Positions 28,839 to 59,797 of a DNA stretch of 64,000 nucleotides are shown piece after piece; position 1 is the first letter of the stretch, and each line of letters begins with the position of its first letter. The position numbers and the translations under genes are program-made. The notes beneath the pieces are model-generated. The model had not been told where the DNA came from. It saw nothing but the letters and a program-made list of their open reading frames with translations, and ran no database searches. Source of the stretch: Nitrospirota bacterium (GTDB lineage Bacteria > Nitrospirota > UBA9217); contig CAVVOB010000016.1 in NCBI GenBank assembly GCA_963749655.1, positions 64,001-128,000 of the forward strand. Direction: 5' to 3'.

Positions 28839-31565
28839 CTATTGACTTATGCGGGCAAAGTAACTGAGCGGATCGATGCCGACGCTTGTAAAATTACCTC
28901 CGGCATAGACCATGCTGCCGCTGATCGCTATGGTATTGACCCAACTGTTCGGATTCGGGTTCCATAACGCCACCGTGTGCCCGGAAGCGTCAAGCGCCGC
29001 AATGTTCTTCCTCGCAGCACCTCCGATAGCGGTGAATTCTCCTCCCGCATAGATCGTGGAACTGTTTAAGGTCACGGCTAGAGCGAAAACCGGAAAATCT
29101 GCATCAGGAATCCAGGATGGATCGACGGTCCCGGACACAGTGTCGAGCAAGGCGATATTTTTTCTTGATATGCCGCCGATGCTTGAAAAATCACCCCCCA
29201 CATAGAGTGAGGAGGTCCCGCTCGTTGCCAGCGCGTAGACTGAATTTCCCGCGTCGACATTGGGGTTCCACGATGTAATAGTCCCTGAAGCATCTATCGC
29301 AGCAAGATGACTTCTCAGAGTTGGTGTTGAGTTTGAATGGAGGTTCGTAAAGTCCCCTCCTGCATACACAATACTGCCGTCTCCGCTGATTGCCAGGGCA
29401 TAGACAAAGCCGTCAGCATCGGGGTCCCAGGATCCCACGCTGCCGGTACCGGTGTCGATCGCGGCGAGGTAGTTCCTCGGTTGACTCTGCATGTAAGTAA
29501 ATTCTCCTCCTGCATAAACCGTAGACCCGCTTACAGCAAGAGCATCAACTGCCCCATCTGCCGAAGGATTCCAGCCGGTGCTGGTCCCTGTTCCCCATGA
29601 ATTAAGGGCCGCGATGTTATTCCTCGGCTGTCCTCCAATGTTCGTAAAATTTCCTCCGGCATACACCGTGTTTGCACTCACGGTAAGGGCCGACACAGGG
29701 TTGTTCGCATTCGGGTTCCAGGACGTAAGGTTTCCAGCAACGTCAAAAGAGGCAACATGATTTCTTGTCTGGCTGCCGACACTGGTAAAACTGCCTCCGG
29801 CAAACACTGTGCTCCCGTAGACCCCAAGCGTCCAGACGGTACTGTTGGCATCGGGGTTCCAGGATGTTGCAGTGCCGCTGGTTGAACTCAATGCGGCAAT
29901 ATTGCTTCTTGATGCGCCGCCGATGCTGGTAAAATCTCCGCCGGCATAGATGGTGGTCCCGCTGGCGACGAGTGTCAAGACCGTAGCATTCGCATTGGGA
30001 TTCCAACTCGTGGCGTTGCCTGCCATATCAAACGCTGCAATGTGATTTCTGTTCGATGACGCTGTTCCTGTTCCGACAGTGACAAAATCCCCGCCTGCAT
30101 ACACAGTATCTCCGGCTCCATTCAACGCCAGTGCCCATACGATATTATCGGCTTCAGGTGCCCAGGATGTCGCGGTGCCTGTTCCCGAAGTATTGAGCGC
30201 CGCGACATAGTTGCGCGTCGGCTCGCTTCCAATCGTTGTGAAATCTCCGCCGACATACAGCGTGCTTCCTGTTCCATCAAGTGCAAGGGCGTAGACCGCG
30301 CTTAACGGCCCAGCCTGGGCGTCCCAGGAGTTTGCACTGCCTGTTGTCGTATCAAGTGCAGCGATGGCGGTTCTCGTCTGACCGCTGATGACGGTAAAAT
30401 CCCCGCCTGCGTATAAGGTGCTGTTTCCTGCATTCAGCGCAAGAGCGAAAACGGTATTGTCTGCGCCTGGATTCCACACAGTCGCCGCTCCCGCTGCATC
30501 GAGCGCAGCGATATTGTTCCTCGATTGTCCGCCGATAGATGTAAAACTTCCGCCCGAATAAACCGCGCTCCCATTCACCGCAAGAGCCAGGACCGTTCCG
30601 CTTGCGTTCGGGTTCCACGAAGGATCAACCGATCCATCGGGAAGAATATGGGCGATGTTGTTCCTTGTGATTCCGCCAACATGAGTAAATAAACCTCCGA
30701 TGTACCAACCGCCGGAACCGTCGGGAGCAACTGCATAGACTTCGCCTGAGACTCTTGGATAGACCGATACCGGCGATCCCGATGTTGCGTCGAGAGGCAC
30801 CGCGCTGCCCGTAGCCGGACCGATCTTTGTGAAATTACCGCCGAGATAGGTTGTTCCGCTGGATGCGACGGCAATAGACAGGACTTCCCCGTTCGTCACG
30901 AACGGAATTGCCGGCGGGGTTGCTTTCGGCGTTGCCGAAACCTCGGCGGAAAGTCCGCTCTCGATGCCGGACGTGCTTGTGGCGGTGACGGCATAATAGT
31001 AGGACGTCCCGTTATACAGGGATTGATGGGTGTAGGGCGACGTTGCATTGGTTATCTTGTTCGACGAGGTTGTAACACCGGGAGCATAACTCCAGTAAAC
31101 GGTATAGGATTGGGCATTTGCCACAGCGTCCCAGGACAATATGTTCTGACCGTTGCCTGCCATTACCGTAATGTTAGCCGGCACGCCCGCAATCACCACC
31201 TCCGGTGTGGCCGAGACTTCCGCCGACAGACCGCTCTCGCCTATGGCGTTCGATGCGCTCACAGCGTAATAGTATGCCGTGCCGTTCGTGAGGCTTGAAT
31301 GAACATAAGGCGAGGTTGCGCCGGTTATCGCTGAATCCGATTTCGTGACTCCCGGAGAATTCTTCCAGTAAACGGTATATGACGTGGCCCTTGACGCGGC
31401 CCCCCAGCTCAGTGTTACCTGGCCGTCCCCTGAAGTTGCCGTGACGTTCGACGGCGCGTCGGGCGCGGTAGCTCCGCTGATGCCGGTGCTGCCGCCTCCT
31501 CCGGAGCAGGATAGAAACGTAAGAGACAGAAGTGCGACGACCAGGGTCATGGATACTTTTTTCAT
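28839..31565 (-). CDS. Surface lipoprotein: 2 FN3 domains + 14 approx. 50-aa beta-propeller repeats
   Basis: Lipobox TFLSC; two YYYAV FN3 domains; 14 copies of WNP.AN..V.ALA....YAGG.FT.IGG..RNNIAA. Confidence 0.85.
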   Translation of the reverse strand: MKKVSMTLVVALLSLTFLSCSGGGGSTGISGATAPDAPSNVTATSGDGQVTLSWGAASRATSYTVYWKNSPGVTKSDSAITGATSPYVHSSLTNGTAYYYAVSASNAIGESGLSAEVSATPEVVIAGVPANITVMAGNGQNILSWDAVANAQSYTVYWSYAPGVTTSSNKITNATSPYTHQSLYNGTSYYYAVTATSTSGIESGLSAEVSATPKATPPAIPFVTNGEVLSIAVASSGTTYLGGNFTKIGPATGSAVPLDATSGSPVSVYPRVSGEVYAVAPDGSGGWYIGGLFTHVGGITRNNIAHILPDGSVDPSWNPNASGTVLALAVNGSAVYSGGSFTSIGGQSRNNIAALDAAGAATVWNPGADNTVFALALNAGNSTLYAGGDFTVISGQTRTAIAALDTTTGSANSWDAQAGPLSAVYALALDGTGSTLYVGGDFTTIGSEPTRNYVAALNTSGTGTATSWAPEADNIVWALALNGAGDTVYAGGDFVTVGTGTASSNRNHIAAFDMAGNATSWNPNANATVLTLVASGTTIYAGGDFTSIGGASRSNIAALSSTSGTATSWNPDANSTVWTLGVYGSTVFAGGSFTSVGSQTRNHVASFDVAGNLTSWNPNANNPVSALTVSANTVYAGGNFTNIGGQPRNNIAALNSWGTGTSTGWNPSADGAVDALAVSGSTVYAGGEFTYMQSQPRNYLAAIDTGTGSVGSWDPDADGFVYALAISGDGSIVYAGGDFTNLHSNSTPTLRSHLAAIDASGTITSWNPNVDAGNSVYALATSGTSSLYVGGDFSSIGGISRKNIALLDTVSGTVDPSWIPDADFPVFALAVTLNSSTIYAGGEFTAIGGAARKNIAALDASGHTVALWNPNPNSWVNTIAISGSMVYAGGNFTSVGIDPLSYFARISQ

Positions 31566-31651: not shown

Positions 31652-32341
31652 TCAGGCCGTTGCTTTTTTATCTATCGTTACCGGCGTCTTTTTCTGGATA
31701 TTCATGATGAGCGCGTTCATTGCATCGCGCTGTTTTTCCGCCAGAAGGGTCTGCCGGAAAGTCTCTCTATTCTTCTCGAAGTCTCCGGGTTTCGCTTTGG
31801 GGTTCTTTTCCTGATAGGCGGCCTTCAGTTCGGCGTCGTCCACGGCAACGCTGTCTCTTACAATGCGTTCAACCTTTTCCCTTAGGAGAAACTCCCGCTG
31901 CTTGGCCTCGAAAACCGCGGGGGTCATATTGACGCGGTTGAGAATCCCCTCGTAGACCTGCTTGTCGAACCTGCCGTTTCGGGAAAAAGCGGGCATGTTG
32001 AGGATTACCGACTGCAGCTCTTCATCGCTCACCTTGAGCCCCAGCCTTCCCGCTTCATCGACGAGGAGCCGGTTCACGATCAGTTCCTGGAGCGCCTGGG
32101 CCCTGAGGCTCTTTTCGATGTCTGCATTGAGCTTGTCCTTCAGCAGTTCCCGGTAATTTTCGTACAGGTTCCGGTAGGCCGTGTTCACGTCGTCCACGGT
32201 GATCACATAATCGCCCACTTTTGCCGCGGTCCGTCCGCCCTGCCCCGATGGATAGATGCCGAAAAAGAGAAAGGTCACCGTGATCAACCCTACGATGATC
32301 CACATCATCCAGACCATATGTTTGCGAAGCCATTCGATCAT
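31652..32341 (-). CDS. SurA N-terminal domain protein (PpiD-like chaperone)
   Basis: N-terminal TM, AAKVGD..IT, LGLKVSDEEL, AFSRNGRFD. Confidence 0.85.
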   Translation of the reverse strand: MIEWLRKHMVWMMWIIVGLITVTFLFFGIYPSGQGGRTAAKVGDYVITVDDVNTAYRNLYENYRELLKDKLNADIEKSLRAQALQELIVNRLLVDEAGRLGLKVSDEELQSVILNMPAFSRNGRFDKQVYEGILNRVNMTPAVFEAKQREFLLREKVERIVRDSVAVDDAELKAAYQEKNPKAKPGDFEKNRETFRQTLLAEKQRDAMNALIMNIQKKTPVTIDKKATA

Positions 32342-32358
32342 TGCATGTCCCCCCTATC

Positions 32359-32438
32359 AATTGCGAATTGCGAAATTGTGAATTTCGGATTTCCGGTTGG
32401 GGATATTGATCCGCAATCCGAAATCCGAAATTCGAAAT
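32359..32438. repeat. Palindromic heptamer-repeat element (AATTGCG / ATCCGCA family)
   Basis: aattgcg aattgcg aaattgtg aatttcg gatttcc ... atccgca atccgaa atccgaa attcgaa. Confidence 0.8.
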
Positions 32439-32440
32439 TT

Positions 32441-33872
32441 TTATTCACTCAGTTTCTTTTTCAGCAGCTGGTTCACCATGTCCGGGTTCGCCTTGCCCTT
32501 GCTCGCCTTCATCACCTGGCCGACGAAGAAGCCGAACAGCTTTTCCTTGCCGGCCTTGTAATCGGCGTGCTGCGCGGTATTGGCGTTGATCACCTCGGCG
32601 ATGATCTGCTCGATGGCGCCCGTGTCGGAGACCTGCACCAGGCCCTGTTCTTTCACGACGGTCTCGGCGTCCTTGCCGGACTTGTACATTTCTTCAAACA
32701 CGGTCTTCGCGATCTTCGTGCTGATAACGCCGTCGGAGATCATCTTGACCATGCCCGCGAGCTTGTCGGGCTTGATCGGGCAGGCTTCGATCTCCTTGTT
32801 GTCGGCGTTCAGGAGCCGCATCAGTTCGCCCATTATCCAGTTCGATATCACTTTCGGCTGTCCGGAAAGCTTCGCAGCCTCTTCGTAGTACGACGCCAGC
32901 GCCCGGCTCTGGGTAAGCATGTCCGCGTCGTATTCGGGCAGGCCGTACTCCTTGACGAAGCGGACGCGCTTCGTGTCAGGCAGTTCGGGGATGGTTTTGC
33001 CGATGGACTCGACGGTCTCCCGCGACACGACGATGGGCACGAGGTCGGGTTCGGGGAAATACCGGTAGTCATGGGCCTCTTCCTTGCTCCTCATGGAAAA
33101 GGTCACCCCTTTGGACGAATCAAAAAGCCTCGTTTCCTGCACGACCGTGCCCCGCTCGTCCAGGATCTGGGCCTGGCGCTTGATCTCGTACTCGATCGCC
33201 TTCTGCACGAACTTGAAGGAGTTCACGTTCTTGATCTCGGCCCTGGTGCCGAACTCCTTGCTGCCGACGGGACGGATAGACACGTTGGCGTCGCACCGGA
33301 AGTTCCCCTTCTCCATGTCCGCGTCGGATACCTCGATGTAGCGCAGGATGGAGCGGAGCTTCTTGAGGTACTCCGACGCCTCCTCGGGCGTCCGGATGTC
33401 CGGCTCGGACACGATCTCCATGAGCGGCGTGCCCGCGCGGTTCAGGTCCACCAGGCTCGCTCCTGCCTCGGACGTGTGAAGGTTCTTGCCCGCGTCCTCC
33501 TCGAGATGGATGCGCGTGAGGCCGATCCGTTTGACTTCGCCGCTCGACCACGATCTCGACATACCCGTGCTCGCAGACCGGCAGCTCGTACTGCGAGATC
33601 TGGTAGCCCTTGGGCAGGTCGGGGTAGAAATAGTTCTTGCGCGCGAACCGGCTGGAGGGGTTGATCGTGCAATGTGTGGCCAGCCCGGTCTTGACGATGA
33701 ATTCCACCGCCTTCCTGTTCAGGACCGGCAGCACGCCCGGCATGCCGATGCAGACCGGGCAGGTCCGCGTGTTCGCGTCTTCGCCGAACGTCGTCTCGCA
33801 GCCGCAGAAGATCTTGGTATTCGTCTGGAGCTGGGCATGCACTTCAAGCCCGATGACTGCCTCGTATTTCAT
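32441..33872 (-). CDS. gatB: Asp/Glu-tRNA amidotransferase subunit B; one frameshift
   Basis: [52 protein letters not shown]. Confidence 0.97.
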
Positions 33873-33910
33873 ATGCTCATCATCCTCGTGATTTCAGTTT
33901 TTCGTTAGTA

Positions 33911-33943
33911 CCCTTGCCCCTTGCTACTTGACCCTGGACCTGG
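33911..33943. repeat. Heptamer-repeat arm (CCCTTGN family)
   Basis: cccttgc cccttgc tacttga ccctgga cctgg; same unit as 59671-59776. Confidence 0.7.
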
Positions 33944-33944
33944 T

Positions 33945-35409
33945 TTAGAGCTTTGGCTTCTTCTTGTGCCATTCCGTCGCCTGCTCATACGCAAACGCGG
34001 CATGAAGGACCGACTCCTCGTCGAAATGCCTGCCCAGCAGCTGCAGCCCGATCGGCAGGCCCGCTTTCGTGAATCCCGCAGGGGATCGAGATTCCCGGAA
34101 TGCCGGCCAGGTTCACGCTGATCGTGAAGATGTCGGACAGATACATCTGGAGCGGATCTGCCGATTTCTCGCCGATCTTGAACGCAGCCGTCGGCGCCGT
34201 GGGCGTGGCGATGACGTCGACGGTCTTGAACGCCTCGTCAAAGTCCCGCTTGATCAGGGTCCGCGCCTGCTGCCCTTTCTTGTAGTAGGCATCGTAGTAT
34301 CCTGCCGAAAGCGCGTAGGTGCCGAGCATGATCCTGCGCTTGACCTCGGGACCGAACCCCTGGCTGCGCGACTTCATGTACATGTCCAGCAGGTCCTTCG
34401 GCGCTTCCGCGCGAAATCCGTACTTGACGCCGTCGTACCGGGCCAGGTTGGAGCTCGCCTCGGACGTCGCGAGGATATAGTAGGTCGCGACCGCATAGTC
34501 CGTGTGCGGCAGCGACACCTGAACGACCGTTGCTCCGAGGCCTTCGAGCGTCTTGACCGCGTCGCGGACCGCTTTGTCCACTTCCGGGTCCATGCCTTCG
34601 ATGAAGTACTCCTTCGGCAGGCCGATCTTCATCCCCTTCACGTCCTTCTTGAGCGCCTTGGTGAAATCGGGGCCGCGATGTTCGCCGACGTCGAGTCCCG
34701 GTCGTCGTGGCCGGCAATGACGTTCATGAGCAGCGCCGAGTCCGTCACGTCCTTGGTGATGGGACCGATCTGGTCCAGGGACGACGCGAAGGCGACGAGG
34801 CCGAACCGTGACACCCTGCCGTAGGTCGGTTTGAGGCCCACCACGCCGCAGCAGGCCGCGGGCTGGCGGATCGATCCGCCCGTGTCCGAGCCGAGGGACC
34901 CGATGCATTCGTCGGCAGCGACGGCGGCGGCCGAACCGCCGCTCGAACCGCCCGGGAATCCGTCTGCAGGTCCCAGGGGTTCTTCGTCGCAAAGAAGCCG
35001 GAATTCTCCGTCGACGAGCCCATGGCGAACTCGTCCATGTTCGGCTTGCCGCAGATCACGTCGCCGGCCTGCTTCAGCTTCCTGACGACCGTCGCATCGT
35101 AAGGCGGGATGAAGTTCCCCAGGATCTTCGACGCGCAGGTCGTCTTGATGCCTTCGGTGCACATGTTGTCCTTGATCGGCAATCGGGATGCCGAGGAGCG
35201 GCGACGTGATGTCTCCGCCTTGATCCGTTTGTCCGCTTCCTTCGCCTGCGCCGGGCCGCATCCGCGGTGACCGTGATATACGCCTTGACCTTGTCGTCCA
35301 CGGCGCTGATCCTGCTGAGGACCGATTCGGTAACGGCTTCGGACGTGGTCTCGCCCTTCTTCAGCATGTCGTGCAGATCGTGGATTGTCCGCTGATAGAG
35401 CTCCATCAT
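33945..35409 (-). CDS. gatA: Asp/Glu-tRNA amidotransferase subunit A; frameshifted
   Basis: [69 protein letters not shown]. Confidence 0.97.
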
Positions 35410-35759
35410 TTCTCCTTCACCCGGTTGTTGTCATCGACGAGAACGATATTGGGTTTGAAGGTCTTGAGCTCCTCCTCGTTGAAGTACTCGTAGCAGAACA
35501 CGATGATCTTGTCGCCCTTGACGCCCTTGCGGGCTGTGGGGCCGTTCAGCACATTTCCCCGGAATCGCGCGTTCCCGGGAATGACATAGGTCTCGAACCG
35601 CTCGCCGTTGTTCAGGTTCGACACGCTCACCTGCTCGTAGGGAAGCATATCCGCAGCTTCGAGAAGGACGGGGTCGACGGTCAGGCTCCCCTCGTACTCG
35701 AGGTTCGAGTCCGTCACCGTCGCCCGGTGGATCTTTGATCGCAGCATCAATCTGAACAT
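35406..35759 (-). CDS. panD: Aspartate 1-decarboxylase
   Basis: [20 protein letters not shown] (G-S cleavage site), NGERFETY. Confidence 0.93.
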
Positions 35760-35776
35760 GATTCTCCTTGAAGTTC

Positions 35777-35856
35777 AGTCAGGAGTAAACAGTGAGGGGT
35801 CAGGAGAAAAACCTGTTCGCATTTCTTCCCCTCACACCTCACTCCTGACCCCTTAC
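35777..35856. repeat. Palindromic heptamer-repeat element (AGTGAGG / CCTCAC family)
   Basis: agtcagg agtaaac agtgagg ggtcagg ... ccctcac acctcac tcctgac cccttac. Confidence 0.75.
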
Positions 35857-35868
35857 CGGTTTTATTCG

Positions 35869-36156
35869 CTATTCTATGATCTTCGGCACCTTGTAATGCC
35901 CCGCCGCCTTTTCCGGCGCATTCGCCAGCGCCCGTTCCTGGGAAAGGCTTTCCCGTGCCACATCGTCGCGCATGACGTTGTTGATGTCCAGCACGTGCGA
36001 CGTCGGCTCCACGCCCTTGGTGTCCAGCTCGTTCAGCTTGTCCACGTAGGTGAGGATGTTCGACAGCTGGTCCGTCAGTTTGTCCTTTTCCTGGTCCGAC
36101 AGCTCGAGCCTGGCCAGCTTGGCCACGTGTTCAACTTCCTGTTTGGTGATTTTCAT
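35869..36156 (-). CDS. gatC: Asp/Glu-tRNA amidotransferase subunit C
   Basis: MKITKQEVEHVAKLARL...VEPTSH...ALANAP...KVPKII. Confidence 0.95.
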   Translation of the reverse strand: MKITKQEVEHVAKLARLELSDQEKDKLTDQLSNILTYVDKLNELDTKGVEPTSHVLDINNVMRDDVARESLSQERALANAPEKAAGHYKVPKIIE

Positions 36157-36183
36157 GGATGACTCCTCAAAATGACGACTGCA

Positions 36184-36283
36184 GCCGTGAATCACACGAA
36201 TTTCCACGAATGTGAAAAACAAAAGCAGACTTCCGGGTTTTATTCAGCTCTTTAATTCGTGCCCATTCGTGTTAATTCGTGGC
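36184..36283. repeat. Palindromic 9-10-nt-period element (CACGAAT / ATTCGTG family)
   Basis: gccgtgaat cacacgaat ttccacgaat ... attcgtgccc attcgtgtta attcgtggc. Confidence 0.8.
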
Positions 36284-36293
36284 AAACCGGATT

Positions 36294-38550
36294 CTAAATC
36301 ACTTCCAGATTCGCATACTTCACCGCCAGCGTCTTGACCCCGTGTCCCGGAAAGCTGACGCTGATCTTGAGATCGTCGCCCGCCCCTTCCGAACGCTGCA
36401 CCGTGCCGAGCCCGAACTTTGCGTGCCGGACCACGGCCCCCCGGTAATACTTTCCGGCAGCCCCGTCTTTGGGCTGCGGCTGCGGCGCGGTCTTGAATTC
36501 CCCTGCCACAGCACGGGCGCTGGAAACAGAAGGGCTGGTCCAGGTCGCCATACGGTCCCGGTACGAAAGGGAAGAACTGCCGGGATCGCCGCCTCCGGTG
36601 AATTCCATCGCTTCCTTCGGGATCTCCTGCACGAACCTCGACATCAGGTTCGCCTGCGGATAACCGTAGAGCCTTCGCTCAGACGCATGGGTGATGACGC
36701 AGCTTTTCCTTGGCCCGGGTGATTCCTACGTAGCAGAGCCTGCGCTCCTCTTCCAGCTCTTCCTCGCTCTCCGCCGAACGGGAATGGGGGAAGAGGCCTT
36801 CTTCCATTCCTACCATAAAGACGACGGAAAATTCGAGCCCCTTGGCGTTATGGAGCGTCATGAGCGTGACCGAATCGCTGCCCACCCGCCTGCCCTCCGC
36901 CGCGGTCTGCTCCTCTGAATCCGTTATGAGCGCCACCTGGTCGAGGAACGAGGTGAGCGAGGCGTCCCGGTTCTGCTCCTGGAAATCCTCGGTTGCCGAC
37001 AGGAGTTCATTCAGGTTCTCGAGCCGGATCCGCGCTTCGACGTTCTTGTCCTGTTCGAGCGCCGAGCCGTACCCCGAGTCGTGGATCACGCGCCGAACGA
37101 GCTCCGTAACGGTCATCACCCCGAGATCGGCCCGCATGCGCTCCATCATGGCGGTGAACTCACGGAGCTTCTTCTTTGCCGCAGGCGACACCTCGGCGTC
37201 ATCGGGATTCATTGCCGCCTCGTAAAGGCCGGTGCCTGATCGCAGTGCCGCGGATTCGAGCTTATCGATCGTCGTGTCGCCGATGCCGCGCGCCGGCACA
37301 TTGATGATCCTGCGCAGACTGACGATGTCCGACGGGTTCTGAAGGACCCGCAGATAGGCGATGACGTCCTTGATCTCCTTCCGGTCGTAGAACCGGAGCC
37401 CGCCGAAGATCCGGTACGGGATGCCGAGGCCCCGGAGGCCGTCTTCCAGCGCCCGGGACTGGGCATTGGTGCGGTACAGCACGGCAAGCTCCCGGAGGCT
37501 CCTGCCGCCATCGACTTCCTGCTGGATGGACCGGGCGATGAACCGGGCCTCGTCCTTCTCGTCCACCGCCTTGTAGCACAGGATCTTTTCGCCGCCGCGC
37601 TTCTCGGTCCAGAGCTCCTTCGGCTTCCTGCCCAGGTTGCGGCTGACCACGGCGCCGGCCGCCCCGAGGATGTTCTGGGTCGACCGGTAGTTCTGCTCCA
37701 GCTTGATGACCTTCGCGTCGGAATAGTCCTTCTCGAAGTTCAGGATATTCGAGATGTCGGCGCCGCGGAACTTATAGATGCTCTGGTCGTCGTCTCCGAC
37801 AACGCACAGGTTCTGGTGCTTCATGGTCAGCAGCCGCACGAGGCGGTACTGCGCGCGGTTCGTATCCTGGTACTCGTCGATCAGGATGTGCCGGAATATC
37901 CCCTCGTAGTAGGCAAGCACGTCCTGGTGCTGTTCGAACAGCCGGACGGTCAGCATGAGCAGGTCGTCGAAATCGAGCCCGCCCGACTCCCGGAGCTTTT
38001 CCTCGTACATCGCATAGACGCGCGACACGGCTTCCTCGAAACCGAAGGCGGAGCTCGTCTTTGCGAACTGCGCGGCGTCGGTCAGGTTGTTCTTGAGCGC
38101 GCTGATCCTGGACGCAATGGCCCGGGGCAGATAGCGCTCCGTGTCGATGCGCAGGTCCGAGGCGCAGGCCTTGATCAGCGACGACCGGTCCGTCTCGTCG
38201 TAGATCACGAAGGTCCGCTTGTACCCCAGACGGTCGATGTGCTGGCGCAGGATCCGCACGCAGGCCGAATGGAACGTGCTGATCCAGAGCCCGCCGTGGC
38301 CGATGCCGCGGCCGAGCGACATGCCGAGCATCCGTTCGAGCCGCTCCTTCATCTCGTTCGCGGCCTTGTTCGTAAAGGTCACGGCAAGGATGCTGCCCGG
38401 GTCTACGCCCCGCTCGCGGATCAAATGGGCGATCCGGGAGGTGATAACGCGCGTCTTCCCGCTTCCAGCGCCGGCGAGGATCAGAAGCGGCCCGTCGCCG
38501 TGCAGCACGGCCTCGCGCTGGGGCGGGTTCAGGTTTTCAAGATAATCCAT
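36294..38550 (-). CDS. pcrA: UvrD/PcrA ATP-dependent DNA helicase; one frameshift near 36698
   Basis: AGAGSGKT, DEYQD, VGDDDQSIY, NYRST, HNAKGLEF, EERRLCYVGITRA, C-terminal Tudor-like VRHAKFGLG. Confidence 0.95.
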
Positions 38551-38565
38551 AAAAATACTTTGTTT

Positions 38566-38689
38566 GCCGCGAATTTCACGAATGGACACGAATTAAAGAA
38601 CTAAACTAAAAACGGGAAAATGATCTAATTCGCTTGAGTTCTGTTTTCGGCTTTTCTTAAATTCGTGAAAATTCGTGTCAATTCGTGGC
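38566..38689. repeat. Palindromic 9-10-nt-period element (CACGAAT / ATTCGTG family)
   Basis: gccgcgaat ttcacgaat ggacacgaat ... attcgtgaaa attcgtgtca attcgtggc. Confidence 0.8.
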
Positions 38690-38714
38690 GTATATCATTT
38701 TTTTGGTGTCGCAG

Positions 38715-40544
38715 TTATTCCACCGTCACGCTCTTCGCCAGGTTCCTCGGCTGGTCCACGTCGGCGCCGAGCAGGACCGCGATATGGTAGGCCAGCAGTT
38801 GAAGCGGTATGGACATCAGGATGGGCTGGAGCAGATGGTTCGTCGCCGGCACCGGTATCGCATGGTGGACCCGTTTCGTAATCTCGGTGTCGCCTTCGGT
38901 CGTCAGCGCAATAACGATCCCGCCCCGCGCCCTGATCTCCTCGATGTTCGCCAGGATCTTGTCGTACACGCCGTTCTTGCCCGCAAGGACGACCACCGGC
39001 AGTTTCTCGTCGATCAGCGCGATCGGCCCGTGCTTCATCTCGCCGGCGGGGTACCCTTCGGCGTGAATGTAGGATATTTCCTTCAGTTTCAGTGCGCCTT
39101 CCAGTGCAACGGGAAAATTCGGCCCTCTGCCGAGATAGAGGAAGTCCGTCGCCTTGAAATAGAGCTTCGCGATCTGCTCGATCAGTTCATTCCCCTCGAG
39201 GCAGCGCTCGACAAGGGCGGGAACGTGGACGAGATCGGCGAGCAGTTTCTTAACGTCATCGACGGTCAAAATGCCTCGCAGGCGGCCGAAGAACAGTCCG
39301 AAAAGATAGAGCGCCGTCAGCTGCGCGGTAAAGGCCTTGGTCGAGGCCACGCCGATCTCCGGTCCTGCATGGGTGTAGATGACGCCGTCCGCCTCGCGGC
39401 TTGCGGTCGATCCCACCACATTGCAGACAACGATGACCGTGGCCCCCCGCTTTTTCGCCTCCCGCATTGCCGCAAGCGTGTCGGCGGTCTCGCCGGACTG
39501 GGTGATGGCGATGAAGAGATCGTCCTTGCCTACCAGGGGTCCGCGGTAGCGGAATTCGGAAGCGATGTCCACTTCCGTCGGAACGCCGGCCAGCTCCTCG
39601 AAGAGGTACTTGCCCACGAGCCCTGCGTGCCAGGACGTTCCGCAGGCGACGATGAACACCTTCTTCATTGTCCTGAACCGCTCCTGCCCGATCCCGATCT
39701 CCTCGAGATGGATGGCCCCCGTCTCCTGGGAGATCCTGCCGCGGATCGTGTCCATGATGGCCCGCGGCTGCTCGTAAATCTCCTTGAGCATGAAATGCCG
39801 GTACCCGCCCTTCTCGGCCATGACCGGGTTCCACATGACGCGCGTGATCTCCCGGGTCACCTCCGCGCCTTGCAGGTCGGTGATCCGCACGCCCTCTCCC
39901 GAAAGGATCGCCATTTCGTCATCGTTTAAAAACAGGACGTCCCGCGTCCGGTGGAGGATGGCCGGGATGTCGGAAGCAAGGAAGAATTCGCCCATACCGA
40001 GACCGACCACGAGCGGGCTTCCCTTGCGGGCGCCGACCACGACGTCGGGATTGCGCTCATCAATGACCGCGATGGCATAGGCGCCAACCAGCTGCCGCGC
40101 CGCTTCGCGCACGGCTTCTTCCAGGCTGATGCCCTTTGCGGCGATGCTGTCGATGAGATGGGCGATAACTTCCGTGTCGGTCTCGGACTGGAACACCCTC
40201 CCGGAGGCTGCGAGGTCCTTCTTGAGCGCTGTATAGTTTTCGATGATGCCGTTATGAACCACCACGATGCTGCCGGCGCGATGCGGATGGGCGTTTTCCT
40301 CCGACGGTCGGCCGTGGGTGGCCCAGCGCACGTGTCCGACGCCGATGCATCCGGTCAGCTGCTCGCTGCGCAGCAGGGCCTCGAGATTCTGAAGCTTTCC
40401 GACGGCCCTGCGCACCTCGAACCGGTTGTTCTGCAGAACGGCAACGCCCGCCGAATCGTATCCGCGGTATTCTAGCTTCCTCAGACCTTCGATCAGGATC
40501 GGCACAGCAGGTTCTTTTCCGATATATCCGATGATGCCGCACAT
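38715..40544 (-). CDS. glmS: Glutamine-fructose-6-phosphate aminotransferase
   Basis: MCGIIGY, LEYRGYDSAG, RWATHG, QSGETADT, QPRNLAKSVTVE. Confidence 0.98.
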   Translation of the reverse strand: MCGIIGYIGKEPAVPILIEGLRKLEYRGYDSAGVAVLQNNRFEVRRAVGKLQNLEALLRSEQLTGCIGVGHVRWATHGRPSEENAHPHRAGSIVVVHNGIIENYTALKKDLAASGRVFQSETDTEVIAHLIDSIAAKGISLEEAVREAARQLVGAYAIAVIDERNPDVVVGARKGSPLVVGLGMGEFFLASDIPAILHRTRDVLFLNDDEMAILSGEGVRITDLQGAEVTREITRVMWNPVMAEKGGYRHFMLKEIYEQPRAIMDTIRGRISQETGAIHLEEIGIGQERFRTMKKVFIVACGTSWHAGLVGKYLFEELAGVPTEVDIASEFRYRGPLVGKDDLFIAITQSGETADTLAAMREAKKRGATVIVVCNVVGSTASREADGVIYTHAGPEIGVASTKAFTAQLTALYLFGLFFGRLRGILTVDDVKKLLADLVHVPALVERCLEGNELIEQIAKLYFKATDFLYLGRGPNFPVALEGALKLKEISYIHAEGYPAGEMKHGPIALIDEKLPVVVLAGKNGVYDKILANIEEIRARGGIVIALTTEGDTEITKRVHHAIPVPATNHLLQPILMSIPLQLLAYHIAVLLGADVDQPRNLAKSVTVE

Positions 40545-40596
40545 ACTCGATATACTCCATTTACCCGACGAAAAACTTGACTGAATCGTACTATTT

Positions 40597-40669
40597 GCCA
40601 CAGAGAGCACAGAGGGAAGACTTAACAAAATGGAAGATTTTCTCTGAGACTTTTGTGACTTTTTGTGGC
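40597..40669. repeat. Palindromic 9-nt-period element (CACAGAG / CTCTGTG family)
   Basis: gccacagag agcacagag ... ctctgaga cttttgtga ctttttgtggc. Confidence 0.7.
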
Positions 40670-40723
40670 CGGCAAAGATTTTTTACAGTGTCATTATATA
40701 AAAACCGGGGGCACATGCCGCGA

Positions 40724-42106
40724 TCATTTCTTCTGCTTCATTTTTCTTCTGCGGCTCGCAACCCCTTCGCGTATCTCCTGGGGCGCCCTGCTGATTCCGA
40801 GGGCGTCCGCCGGCACATCACGGGTGATCGTCGCGCCTGCCGCGATCAGCGCCCCCCGCCCGATCTTCACGGGCGCCACGAGCTGGGTGTCGCTGCCGAC
40901 GAAGACCCCGTCCTCGATAACGGTCCGGAATTTCTCGAACCCGTCGTAGTTGCAGGTGATGACGCCCGCGCCGATGTTGACGTCACGGCCCACGGTCGCG
41001 TCGCCGATGTAGGAGAGATGATTCGCCTTGCTTCCCGCGCCGATCAGCGCCTTCTTGGTCTCGACAAAATTTCCGATCCGCGCCTTCTCGCCGATCTCGC
41101 TCCCCGGCCGCAGGTGCGCAAACGGCCCGATCGACGCGCCGGACGCGATCGTGCTCTCCTCGATCACCGAGCAGTCCTTTACGGTGACGCCGGCGGCGAG
41201 CGTGCTGTCCGTTATCCGTGCGCCGGGATAGATGACGCAGAAATCGCCTATCGTCGTCGCGCCCTCCAACCGGACATCCGGATAGAGCACTACGTCGCGT
41301 CCCAGCGTTACGGCGGTCCCGACAAAAATCCGCTCGGGCGCGAGCATGGTCACGCCCTCGGCCATCCACTTCCGGTTGATCCGGAGCTGCATGACCGCTT
41401 CCGCGCGGCTGAGGTCATAGCGGGAATTCACGCCCATCACCTCGTCGGCATCTTCGCAGAGAAACGCGGCGACGGTCCTTTTCTTTTTTCGCGCCAGCCC
41501 GACCGTGTCGGGGAGGTAGTATTCTCCCTGCGCATTGTTTCGGCCAAGCCCCGTCAGGGACGACAGCAGAAATTTCGGGTCGAAGCAATAGATGCCGGCG
41601 TTGATCTCCCGGATCTTCTTCTGCGCAGCGGTCGCGTCCTTTTCCTCGACCACGCGCATGACCCCGCCCCTGCCGCGCACCACCCGTCCGTACCCGTAGG
41701 GGTTGTCGATCCGGGCGCTCACAAGCGTGACGGCGGCCCGGGATTTGCGGTGCAGTTCAAGGACGGCCCCGAGGGTTTCTTTCGTGAGCAGCGGCGTATC
41801 GGCGCACAGGATCATGACCGGTCCGCCTGCCGCTGCGATGGCTTCCCGCGCCTGCATCACCGCGTGGCCGGTTCCGAGCTGTTCTGCCTGGAAAACGAAT
41901 TCGACGCCCGCGTCACCCAGCGCCTCCCTGACCCGGTCCGCCTGGTGTCCCAGGACGAGGACGGTCTTTTCCGGCCCGATTCCCTCGGCTGCGCTCAGAA
42001 CGTGCCGCGCCATGGGAAGGCCGGCAACGGGATGAAGGGCCTTGGCTGTCGCGGACTTCATTCGCGTGCCGAGCCCCGCGGCTAGAATGACGACGGTCGG
42101 CTTCAC
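40724..42106 (-). CDS. glmU: Bifunctional UDP-GlcNAc pyrophosphorylase / glucosamine-1-P acetyltransferase
   Basis: LAAGLGTRMKS, QLGTGHA, hexapeptide repeats, HLSYIGDA, CNYDG. Confidence 0.97.
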   Translation of the reverse strand: MKPTVVILAAGLGTRMKSATAKALHPVAGLPMARHVLSAAEGIGPEKTVLVLGHQADRVREALGDAGVEFVFQAEQLGTGHAVMQAREAIAAAGGPVMILCADTPLLTKETLGAVLELHRKSRAAVTLVSARIDNPYGYGRVVRGRGGVMRVVEEKDATAAQKKIREINAGIYCFDPKFLLSSLTGLGRNNAQGEYYLPDTVGLARKKKRTVAAFLCEDADEVMGVNSRYDLSRAEAVMQLRINRKWMAEGVTMLAPERIFVGTAVTLGRDVVLYPDVRLEGATTIGDFCVIYPGARITDSTLAAGVTVKDCSVIEESTIASGASIGPFAHLRPGSEIGEKARIGNFVETKKALIGAGSKANHLSYIGDATVGRDVNIGAGVITCNYDGFEKFRTVIEDGVFVGSDTQLVAPVKIGRGALIAAGATITRDVPADALGISRAPQEIREGVASRRRKMKQKK

Positions 42107-42736
42107 TTAGACGGCCTCCGGTGAAGGACGTTTCAATTTGGCTGCCTGCTCTTCGTCAAGGGGAACCAGTCCCAGCGAAATGATGAACTTCATCCCCTGT
42201 TCCACGGACATATCGAGCCGCACGACCTCGGCCTCGGGCAAAAGAAGGAGAAAACCCGCCGTGGGATTAGGCGTTGTGGGTACGAAAACCGTAACGAACC
42301 TGCCCGAAAGATTGACTGCCGTGCCGTCGAGGGTGCCGGTCATAAATCCGATGCTCCAGCACCCTTTCCGCGGATATTCGACAAGACCGACTCCGTGAAA
42401 CTGCTGTTTCAGCGAAAAGGTCTCCATGACCTGCTTGACCGTGAAGTACACGCCACGGACAAGGGGCACCTTGTGCAGGAGCTCGTCGCCCACCGTGACG
42501 ATCTTACGCCCCAAATAATTTGTGAAGAGAATGCCGACGAGCAGCACGAGGATGACCAGCGTGATGATGCCCATGCCGGGAATCCGGTGGCCCAGAACAT
42601 AGGCCGGCAGGTCAGCCACGATTCCGTCAATGACGCCGAGGAGTGCTTTCAGGACATAGTAAGTCGCCCATACCGGCACGATGACGAACAGGCCGGTGAT
42701 GAAATATTTTTTAAAAAAACTCCTGATTTTCTTCAC
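42107..42736 (-). CDS. DUF502 membrane protein
   Basis: FITGL, KVPLVRGVY, VEYPRKG, VFVPTTPNPT. Confidence 0.9.
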   Translation of the reverse strand: MKKIRSFFKKYFITGLFVIVPVWATYYVLKALLGVIDGIVADLPAYVLGHRIPGMGIITLVILVLLVGILFTNYLGRKIVTVGDELLHKVPLVRGVYFTVKQVMETFSLKQQFHGVGLVEYPRKGCWSIGFMTGTLDGTAVNLSGRFVTVFVPTTPNPTAGFLLLLPEAEVVRLDMSVEQGMKFIISLGLVPLDEEQAAKLKRPSPEAV

Positions 42737-42910
42737 GTTTGCAATATTACTGATTTTACCGGGTCGTTGCAAGCTTTTTTTCGGAATCGCCCCCGTATCC
42801 TTCTGTTTTTACGGGATGAACCGGCATCTCGCGGCTGGATCGAACAACCTGTCTGTCGGGAAGGCGCTCTGAGGCGGTTGGAGCGGCACGCGAAGGTCGA
42901 ACAACGCCGG

Positions 42911-59670: not shown

Positions 59671-59776
59671 AGGGTCAAGGGGCAAGGGTCAGGGGTCAAG
59701 GGAAAACGAAAAGATCCTCAGTCACGGTTCCCTGCCCCCTTTGCTGCTTGCTACTGGACCCTTGACCCTGGACCCC
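59671..59776. repeat. Palindromic heptamer-repeat element (AGGGTCA / CCCTTGA family)
   Basis: agggtca aggggca agggtca ggggtca aggg ... tgcttgc tactgga cccttga ccctgga cccc. Confidence 0.8.
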
Positions 59777-59797
59777 GCAGTCCCCCAAGGAGACCCT

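Follow-up and report, generated by a model that had tools for sequence, protein, structure and literature searches.

The window analysed here is a 64,000-nucleotide stretch of a Nitrospirota bacterium genome (bases 64001-128000 of contig C16 of an assembly denoted G000, which comprises 39 contigs and 4.27 Mb, with a completeness of 86.6% and a contamination of 5.8%). Its central part carries the run glmU-glmS-pcrA-gatC-panD-gatA-gatB with a DUF502 gene at one end and a gene for a SurA_N-domain protein at the other, and according to the Pfam matches every gene between 31652 and 42772 lies on the minus strand (Table 1). The junctions DUF502/glmU and panD/gatA overlap or abut, while the remaining six are true gaps. 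A preliminary description, made from the sequence alone, had placed a short-period palindromic element in each of these gaps, and all six indeed contain an element built of tandem 7-10 nt units at matching positions: four stable hairpins, one decayed element and, in the gatA/gatB gap, the single arm that had also been recognised before. The GCC...GGC termini common to the CACGAAT and CACAGAG types were likewise confirmed, as were the units. The stability of each element was estimated by folding the transcribed strand in comparison with 200 dinucleotide shuffles.

Table 1. Genes and repeat elements of the window, and gene-bearing copies elsewhere in G000 (positions refer to the window unless a contig is named; folds refer to the transcribed strand).
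Feature	Position	Strand	Units, family and anatomy	Fold or remark
DUF502	42107-42772	minus		Pfam
glmU	40724-42106	minus		Pfam
glmU/glmS gap element	40597..40669		decayed GCCACAGAG element, family F5, period 8-9	40590-40675: -15.6 kcal/mol, z -1.3; 23/200 shuffles equally good; one arm decayed
glmS	38715-40628	minus		Pfam
glmS/pcrA gap element	38566..38689		CACGAAT (F1), three units per arm; B-type end on low-coordinate side, A-type end on high-coordinate side	38560-38695: -40.5 kcal/mol, z -6.8
pcrA/uvrD	36294-38589	minus		Pfam; two frames
pcrA/gatC gap element	36184..36283		CACGAAT, family F1, period 10, GCC...GGC termini	36180-36292: -32.0 kcal/mol, z -2.3; 5/200 shuffles equally good
gatC	35869-36162	minus		Pfam
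gatC/panD gap element	35778..35856		hairpin, period-7 arms, GTCAGGAG / AGTGAGG, family F11	35772-35865: -42.5 kcal/mol, z -5.0
panD	35406-35759	minus		Pfam
gatA	33985-35409	minus		Pfam; three frames
gatA/gatB gap element	33905..33937		single arm, period-7 units, minus-strand CCAGGGTCAAG...GGGGCAAGGG, family F9	33895-33960: z +0.14, no hairpin
gatB	32441-33872	minus		Pfam; two frames
gatB/surA-like gap element	32359..32440		hairpin, period-7 arms, AATTGCG / ATTTCGG units, family F7 (TTGCGGATT type)	32355-32445: -29.6 kcal/mol, z -3.9
SurA_N-domain protein	31652-32341	minus		Pfam
Extra F9 hairpin	59671..59779		GGGTCAAGGGGCAAGGG / CCCTTGACCCTGG	outside the range described before
Nuclease cassette	gene at C17:24004-24381		CACGAAT arms	
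Nuclease cassette	C30		CACAGATGAACAC arms	
Nuclease cassette	C12		ATCCGCAGATTAC arms	
Helix-bundle cassette	gene at C30:55899-56216		GTCAGGAG/GTGAGGAG arms	
Helix-bundle cassette	C14		GTTTCGAG arms	
Helix-bundle cassette	gene at C20:75802-76074		GGGCAAGG/CCAGGG arms	
Helix-bundle cassette	C18		AGTTTTTAG arms	
Helix-bundle cassette	C38		AGTGCGGA arms	

Elsewhere in G000 arms of the same build enclose single genes. The genome has three matches to PF13366 (PDDEXK_3, the GxxExxY nucleases) and six to PF05635 (23S_rRNA_IVP, four-helix-bundle proteins), and inverted tandem-unit arms, of a different unit family in each case, surround eight of these nine genes; the ninth match is weak, lies in a 242-aa frame and has no arms. 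This bears out the earlier remark on such arms around stand-alone four-helix-bundle genes, similar to those of rRNA intervening sequences (IVS), and around GxxExxY genes; the search for copies enclosing an open reading frame, which had been proposed along with it, identified PDDEXK_3 or four-helix-bundle genes as the cargo. Of the six window elements, four are members of families that also have a gene-bearing copy in G000 (36184 and 38566, CACGAAT; 35778, GTCAGGAG; 33905, CAAGGG): the units at 35778 and 33905 are those of the arms around the helix-bundle genes of C30 and C20, respectively, and the 36184 element is a gene-less copy of the arms around the nuclease gene of C17. The window elements are read as gene-less forms because their arms, in four of six by the same unit family, bracket these genes. 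A counterpart of the F5 element at 40597 was found in the relative G024, where a PDDEXK_3 gene lies between ACCACAGAG arms.

The cassettes fall into two classes. In the nuclease class, arms of period 8-10 and of the xCC-[AG]C[AG][AG]A[GT] type enclose a minimal PD-(D/E)XK nuclease of 120-145 aa; in G000 and four relatives, arms with C[AG]C units were present at 11 of 13 PDDEXK_3 genes, one of the other two having different arms and one weak arms. In the helix-bundle class, the arms are mostly of period 7 and enclose a protein of the 23S-rRNA-IVS / Avd family. Apart from housekeeping genes caught by two neighbouring gap elements and from short unscanned frames, PF13366 and PF05635 were the only cargo families that could be named between arms. 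One 388-aa frame of an IS4-like (DDE) transposase was also seen between CACGAAT arms (C15:108117-109614), and it is most likely an insertion sequence that landed in the hairpin loop.

The cargo of the CACGAAT class matches PF13366 with E values of 1e-36 to 1e-41 and has the signature GxGxxExxY...D...ExK. Among 16 divergent aligned nucleases G27, G29, E32, Y35, D71, E81, Q95, Y99 and N112 are kept, and K83 nearly always, so that the PD-(D/E)XK catalytic site, as judged from the alignment, is intact. A structure model (predicted local distance difference score, pLDDT, 95.2) shows a generic minimal nuclease core: its nearest Foldseek neighbours were lambda exonuclease, Cas4 SSO0001 and Hjc, with template-modelling (TM) scores of 0.54-0.60 for the top matches. 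Both the alpha-beta-beta-beta-alpha-beta core fold and the D...(D/E)xK residues of the superfamily were hence recognised in this cargo, and a sequence search of the PDB gave no match for the nuclease. For the helix-bundle protein the PDB gave matches to 2rld and 2gsc, both of them five-chain depositions.

Elements with periodic arms are numerous in G000 and are more than a product of chance: 948 periodic tracts were counted, against 92 after shuffling in 200-nt blocks. Stringent loci, with arms of at least 20 nt that are at least 78% complementary and have a self-match of at least 0.6 at lag 6-11 (7-nt seeds), numbered 198, of which 124 could be sorted into 13 unit families; read from outside to inside, arm polarity agreed with that of the own family in 120 of the 124. 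Other settings gave different counts: a first inverted-repeat scan, seeded with 8 nt, yielded 246 loci, of which 127 had periodic arms, and strict pairing of tracts through shared 7-mers gave only 91 pairs and missed the period-10 families, while a permissive scan (512 loci against 129 in the shuffle) was too noisy, and only the stringent subset was used. The genome-wide motif count suggested in the preliminary description gave 41 clusters of CACGAAT/ATTCGTG units, 33 of them with both orientations.

The CACGAAT family (F1) has the consensus GCCACGAAT-linker-CACGAAT-linker-CACGAAT, followed by a loop of about 12-160 nt and the reverse complement; from one locus to the next the arms resemble each other, and most of the loops do not. 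In 24 elements for which three units could be parsed in each arm, linkers matched between the arms at only 35 of 102 positions, compared with 56% for permuted partners (all 2000 permutations were higher), and the stem is therefore broken at every linker. Two end types could be distinguished by their linkers, A (TRA, TTT) and B (TT, TGA). Among 27 parsed elements A was paired with B in eight (AB/BA) and with its own kind in none (AA/BB), the rest having an unclassified end. The CACGAAT family of G000 has two distinct ends, and pairing of an end with its own kind was never seen; in the gene-bearing copy the A end lies upstream and the B end downstream of the gene. A T-run lies before and an A-run after the CACGAAT copies (on either strand A occupies position +2 in 27 and position +3 in 32 of 35 copies), while CACRGAT copies (family F2) have TA on both sides. 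With an A-run instead of a T-run after them and with A+T-rich, interrupted stems, the CACGAAT copies do not fit an intrinsic terminator, and the contiguous 7-10 nt units and the inverted arms do not fit a CRISPR array, in line with what had been stated before for both; integron attC sites were set aside on anatomy.

Whole CACGAAT elements with their flanking spacer also occur duplicated or triplicated in tandem, the period being about 130-157 nt (C17:25931-26336, C38:34687-34943, C22:32314-32545), which is local amplification of complete elements. About 3 kb with the same two CACGAAT elements is common to C13:23840-26558 and C22:179326-182036; the shared elements differ by a few unit changes in one arm only, without a compensating change, and the stretch is either a duplication or a strain variant, given the 5.8% contamination.

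This anatomy bears on two alternatives. Simple-sequence by-products, formed by replication slippage at hairpins or as G-quadruplex repeats and linked to no gene, would account for the unit number that varies between copies, and they have a precedent in the Xanthomonas GGGNATC-type heptamers, of which the parts of Rehm et al. (2015; PMC4692102) seen here report 70-75 convergent inverted pairs enriched between aligned open reading frames and read as quadruplex formers. Most G000 families lack G-runs, however, and the fixed polarity, the defined termini, the two end types of the CACGAAT family and the specific tie of arms to two gene families make such an origin highly improbable. Alternatively, each gene-less element may be the relic of a separate cassette insertion whose gene was later deleted, without any action in trans, so that co-occurrence of elements and genes would reflect only a common history of invasion. 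Matches to PF13366 and PF05635 in relatives that are truncated or contain stops, the unlike loops of the copies and a relative (G009) that retains hairpins with few or no intact genes agree with this explanation. Against it stand some 40 CACGAAT loci for one gene-bearing copy, median loops of 33-88 nt, the closeness of the arms of copies to one consensus, the whole elements present as tandem duplicates (as at C17:25931-26336) and the absence of any further gene remnant in the family searches of G000 (three matches among nine scored for PF13366 and six among 12 for PF05635), and we regard it as quite unlikely.

For the CACGAAT family, the distribution of gene-less copies among 41 genomes follows that of the gene. 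The CACGAAT doublet motif was counted 129 times in G000, 30 in G021, 26 in G024 and eight in G023, and zero to three times in each of the other 37 genomes; exactly the first four have a nuclease gene with CACGAAT-type arms (CGCGAAT in G023). The closest homologues of the CACGAAT-family nuclease, in G021 (66%) and G023 (63%), are found at non-syntenic loci between CACGAAT/CGCGAAT arms, and G024 has a 38% paralogue with period-9 CACGAATGT arms, its motif copies having the same period-9 spacing. CACGAAT satellites, as we call the gene-less copies, abound only where the nuclease gene has those arms. The AGTTTTKAG family shows the same trend, albeit looser: 113 matches in G000 and 13 in G012, the only genome with a close homologue of its helix-bundle protein (62%, cut-off at least 60%), followed by nine, six, five, five and four.

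PF13366 was found in 19 and PF05635 in 28 of the 41 genomes; G001 and G010 have neither, and G002 and G011 only sub-threshold PF05635 fragments. In 400-kb samples of seven genomes the periodic-arm hairpins numbered 15 in G000 (PF13366/PF05635 matches 3/6), 19 in G019 (10/9), nine in G024 (8/5) and 10 in G009 (3/0, the three being one with two stops and two partial), compared with none in G002 (0/1 fragment), two in G001 (0/0) and three in G011 (0/2 fragments), those of the last two genomes not being canonical by eye. Non-periodic hairpins were similarly frequent in all seven samples (13-28). In a PcrA tree the genomes without the genes fall into two clades, each with its own support and each lying among gene-bearing genomes (G011 and G002 group with G006; G001 and G010 fall inside the G008/G013/G014 group), and genes and hairpins are therefore missing together at least twice.

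The arm words also track the protein clade. Among 13 nucleases of G000, G014, G019 and G024, pairs at 75%, 65% and 60% identity have common arm words, while in the remaining pairs, at 27-52% identity, the words differ with one exception. Synteny holds for two of these three pairs, which were therefore inherited vertically with their arms kept, but not for the third. A survey with the CACGAAT-family nuclease at one genome per species gave 51 loci from many phyla, 46 of them with enough flank to score: CACGAAT-type arms accompanied 13 of 18 homologues with at least 59% identity and one of 28 below 59% (Fisher p 1e-6). The other homologues had arm words of the same build (CACAGAT, CACGGAT, GACAGGAT, CGCAAAG, CACAGAG, CACCGAG). 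Since unconstrained DNA would be unrecognisable at 60-68% protein identity, the arm words must be under sequence constraint, and on these comparisons arm sequence and protein clade are inherited together across phyla.

Synteny of the operon extends through the genus and the family and, for the most part, to four genomes from other families in the phylum, which allowed orthologous junctions to be aligned; in more distant families most of its gaps are very short. The pcrA-gatC gap, filled by a CACGAAT hairpin in G000, holds a ACACGGAT hairpin in G019, an ACGAAG hairpin in G015, a CGCAGAG hairpin in G024 and a short one in G008, and CACAGAG hairpins in G006 and G013; it measures 30-54 nt without a hairpin in G009, G011, G001, G002, G010 and G020 and 0-10 nt in more distant genomes. 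Orthologous gaps turn over between relatives, both in the presence of an element and in its family, and the case of motifs fixed at orthologous junctions, which the preliminary description had named as fatal to its own proposal, is therefore excluded. The comparison of filled and empty sites that it had called for gave presence/absence variation, but neither an empty/filled pair at nucleotide resolution nor a target duplication. In G009 the glmS/pcrA gap is 2058 nt long, compared with 37-125 nt elsewhere, and contains an insertion.

The position of the elements relative to genes was scored at 141 loci that have a gene on either side and do not overlap the gene calls. A crude gene caller that over-extends starts had flagged 56 of the 198 loci as in-gene; these did not enter the counts of context and strand, even though roughly half of them look like genuine elements. 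Co-directional gaps held 116 of the 141 (75.2% of junctions; p 0.05), convergent gaps 18 (12.4%) and divergent gaps seven (12.4%; p 0.005), and the contrast grew when the share of intergenic bases served as the reference (co-directional p 1e-4, divergent p 4e-6). What stands out clearly is that divergent gaps are avoided; the proposed targeting of co-transcribed junctions as such is only weakly favoured. The elements start at a median of 24 nt past the upstream stop. All eight gene-bearing cassettes, or masters, are co-oriented with the upstream gene, which fits expression by read-through. With respect to the genes on either side, the A end of CACGAAT satellites was upstream at nine loci and downstream at 12, i.e., no orientation bias was detected in this family and the elements insert in either orientation relative to transcription.

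The same context could be expected of RNA stem-loops kept by the host in operon transcripts, where they would be sites of processing, by RNase III or otherwise, or stabilisers that fix the relative levels of cistrons, in the manner of repetitive extragenic palindromic (REP) hairpins and rRNA IVS stems, with the cassettes merely using the same stems. In the window, four of six elements are far more stable when folded than their shuffles, divergent gaps are avoided and the elements closely follow the upstream stop; moreover, with an A-run in place of a T-run after CACGAAT copies on both strands, the hairpins should not terminate transcription. There is also a precedent in Coxiella, where, in the parts of the report consulted (PMC4990558), a 28-bp IVS stem with the S23p gene in its loop is cut by RNase III. 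Other observations speak against it. Arm mismatches at 105 co-directional loci gave no wobble signature of the transcribed strand (G.U 92 vs A.C 82, p 0.5), and the sense fold was the more stable in 60 loci against 44 (Wilcoxon p 0.06). The linkers are less complementary than by chance, leaving stems broken every 7 bp, orientation shows no bias relative to transcription, the unit sequence is kept across phyla with the protein clade beyond what mere pairing would need, and related genomes with the same operon lack the elements. A host-selected RNA function is thus unlikely. The preliminary description had left the choice between mobile and RNA-structural elements undecided: several indirect lines support the former, and none was found for the latter.

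We therefore favour, with a probability of roughly 0.6, the reading that the gap elements are satellites, i.e., gene-less members of genome-wide inverted-repeat families that share their arms with promoterless one-gene cassettes and are acted on in trans by the protein of the master, as in the pairs formed by REP-associated tyrosine transposases (RAYT) and REP doublets forming hairpins (REPIN) or by transposases and miniature inverted-repeat transposable elements (MITE). The arms are common to satellites and masters, and the observations agree with elements at the level of DNA that have two ends specific to a protein, and of which the gene-less copies either require a gene-bearing one or derive from it; a host-selected RNA stem, independently decayed cassettes and slippage products fit the facts less well. 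The manner in which the elements move we infer as follows. Each arm is an array of about three tandem 7-10 nt units, and these would be sequence-specific binding sites of the encoded protein, in the nuclease class three candidate sites about one DNA turn apart. Masters, placed between operon genes in the same orientation as those genes, would supply a protein that acts in trans on the gene-less copies, multiplying or maintaining them as DNA, by analogy to RAYT/REPIN and transposase/MITE pairs. Selection would leave copies in gaps where promoters escape damage, and the hairpin in the operon transcript is probably tolerated because no U-run follows it. By analogy to rRNA IVS stems the transcript hairpin may be cut by RNase III, which would be a side effect and not the reason for sequence conservation.

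Several observations weigh against satellites served in trans by a master. No transposition event, nucleotide-resolution empty/filled pair or target duplication was seen among genomes whose closest relatives are only about 85% identical (best PanD metagenome match 85%), and the flanks of F1 and F2 elements are compatible with a TA duplication or an extended palindrome alike. Strand-transfer activity is, to our knowledge, not known for a 125-aa nuclease on its own, and a catalytic motif is missing from the four-helix-bundle protein. Loops within one family are mostly unrelated between copies, unusual for MITEs or REPINs copied as whole units. Families F3, F4, F5, F7 and F10, including those of the window elements at 40597 (F5) and 32359 (F7), had no gene-bearing copy in the 86.6%-complete G000 assembly, and four of 19 four-helix-bundle genes examined lacked arms. 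G015, G014, G013 and G019 have 5-9 AGTTTTKAG matches without a close protein homologue. G009 (84% complete) is a partial exception to the co-occurrence of genes and hairpins: several of its 10 periodic hairpins per 400 kb are of period 7, there is no PF05635 match, and its PF13366 matches comprise one with two in-frame stops and two that are partial or stop-riddled. An automated count of hairpins in orthologous gaps gave a weak difference, 0 of 18 in gene-less genomes compared with 10 of 45 in those genomes of the family that bear the genes (p 0.05), with a method that under-detects (3 of the 5 hairpins of the window itself), reading by eye finding more in gene-bearing genomes. Finally, related genomes are non-independent samples.

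Among known systems REPIN-RAYT pairs are similar, in the parts of that literature consulted, in having short inverted pairs that form hairpins and are dispersed between genes in tens to hundreds of copies, in the tie of a sequence family to one single-copy gene flanked by the same repeats and in a gene that may pass vertically while its copies turn over. Dispersed inverted-repeat hairpins are what was found here as well (198 stringent loci, 41 CACGAAT clusters); the differences are a minimal PD-(D/E)XK nuclease or four-helix bundle in place of an HUH/Y1 transposase, arms made of tandem-unit arrays where a REPIN has single REPs, and unconserved loops. Membership was rejected, as the periodic arms enclose PF13366/PF05635 genes and the Y1_Tnp genes of G000 lie elsewhere. 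Nine Y1_Tnp (RAYT/IS200-like) matches were recorded in G000, two of them inside perfect or near-perfect non-periodic 27-nt inverted repeats (C19:109247-109867 and C14:41258-41861), and non-periodic REP-like hairpins (e.g., GTCATTCCGGCTTGTCCGGAATC) are repeated at several places in the genome, which seems to harbour a classical REP/RAYT-type system alongside the elements with periodic arms.

The 23S rRNA IVS of Coxiella and Leptospira share with the helix-bundle class an S23p/PF05635 gene in the loop of a terminal-inverted-repeat stem, and the consulted parts of the Coxiella report (PMC4990558) cite the old idea that the gene serves mobility, long suspected for these sequences. Five of the six PF05635 genes of G000 are likewise located between inverted arms; unlike IVS, the present elements lie between protein genes, are mostly gene-less, have tandem-unit arms and include a second, unrelated cargo, the nuclease. 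A 23S rRNA IVS was rejected for the window elements on their position between protein-coding genes, and Rfam at gathering scores gave no match, and hence no rRNA, in the whole window. MITEs with their parent insertion sequences resemble the present families in the terminal inverted repeats, in gene-less derivatives that outnumber the gene-bearing copy and in insertion in either orientation; here, in contrast, the cassette has no DDE or other transposase and the interiors of copies are unrelated to the parent. A MITE derived from a transposase-encoding element was rejected as well, with a 125-aa nuclease or a four-helix bundle as the cargo and the C15 DDE transposase looking like an intruding insertion sequence. 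The two different ends, each with several spaced sites predicted to bind protein, would be analogous to those of Tn7 and Mu, and TnsA of Tn7 is a PD-(D/E)XK nuclease too.

Short tandem heptamers have been reported before. In the parts seen of the papers on Xanthomonas/Nostoc heptamers (PMC4692102) and on the TAACTGA repeats of Beggiatoaceae (PMC4679880) they form intergenic arrays, usually with 2-6 copies of a 7-nt unit and frequently arranged as convergent inverted pairs; the arrays are enriched between aligned reading frames and rare between divergent ones, with a patchy distribution that suggests horizontal spread, and they are read there as quadruplex formers or translational signals, whereas here many families occur, each tied to a gene. 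The passages of both papers found by term search name no nuclease or helix-bundle gene tied to the repeats. Full-text searches gave no link of these genes to tandem-unit arms outside rRNA, 'GxxExxY' being met in a reverse-transcriptase context. Of the earlier suggestion of an undescribed system, the link to genes thus stands within the literature searched, while heptamer repeats as such do not count as new, judging by the consulted parts of Rehm et al. (2015).

If the relation of masters to satellites is true, two very common small-protein families of unknown function gain a role, the dispersed heptamer repeats noted in the literature without an agreed explanation are accounted for, and the rRNA intervening sequences acquire relatives outside rRNA. 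As protein clade and arm word match across phyla, a test set for the recognition of nucleic acids by proteins is already at hand, with a 7-nt word of its own for each protein. In practical terms, the elements break assemblies and fill operon gaps, and annotators often meet them without a name. A wider proposal, possible but held only tentatively, is that of a distinct and widespread class of mobile DNA: promoterless one-gene cassettes whose arm words are read by a minimal PD-(D/E)XK nuclease or an Avd-like four-helix-bundle pentamer and which seed hundreds of satellites. The heptamers of Xanthomonas and of cyanobacteria, where STRR (short tandemly repeated repetitive) sequences are found, the rRNA intervening sequences and two very large 'hypothetical' protein families would then be one system, moving unlike all known transposases.

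Some further features of the locus were noted. The Pfam domains of gatB, gatA and pcrA run on across the frame breaks listed in Table 1, which suggests indel errors of the assembly rather than pseudogenes; in-frame stops in pcrA were also seen in several relatives. Just downstream of the operon, the minus strand at 28839-31565 encodes a 908-aa protein with fibronectin type III and DUF5122 beta-propeller repeats.

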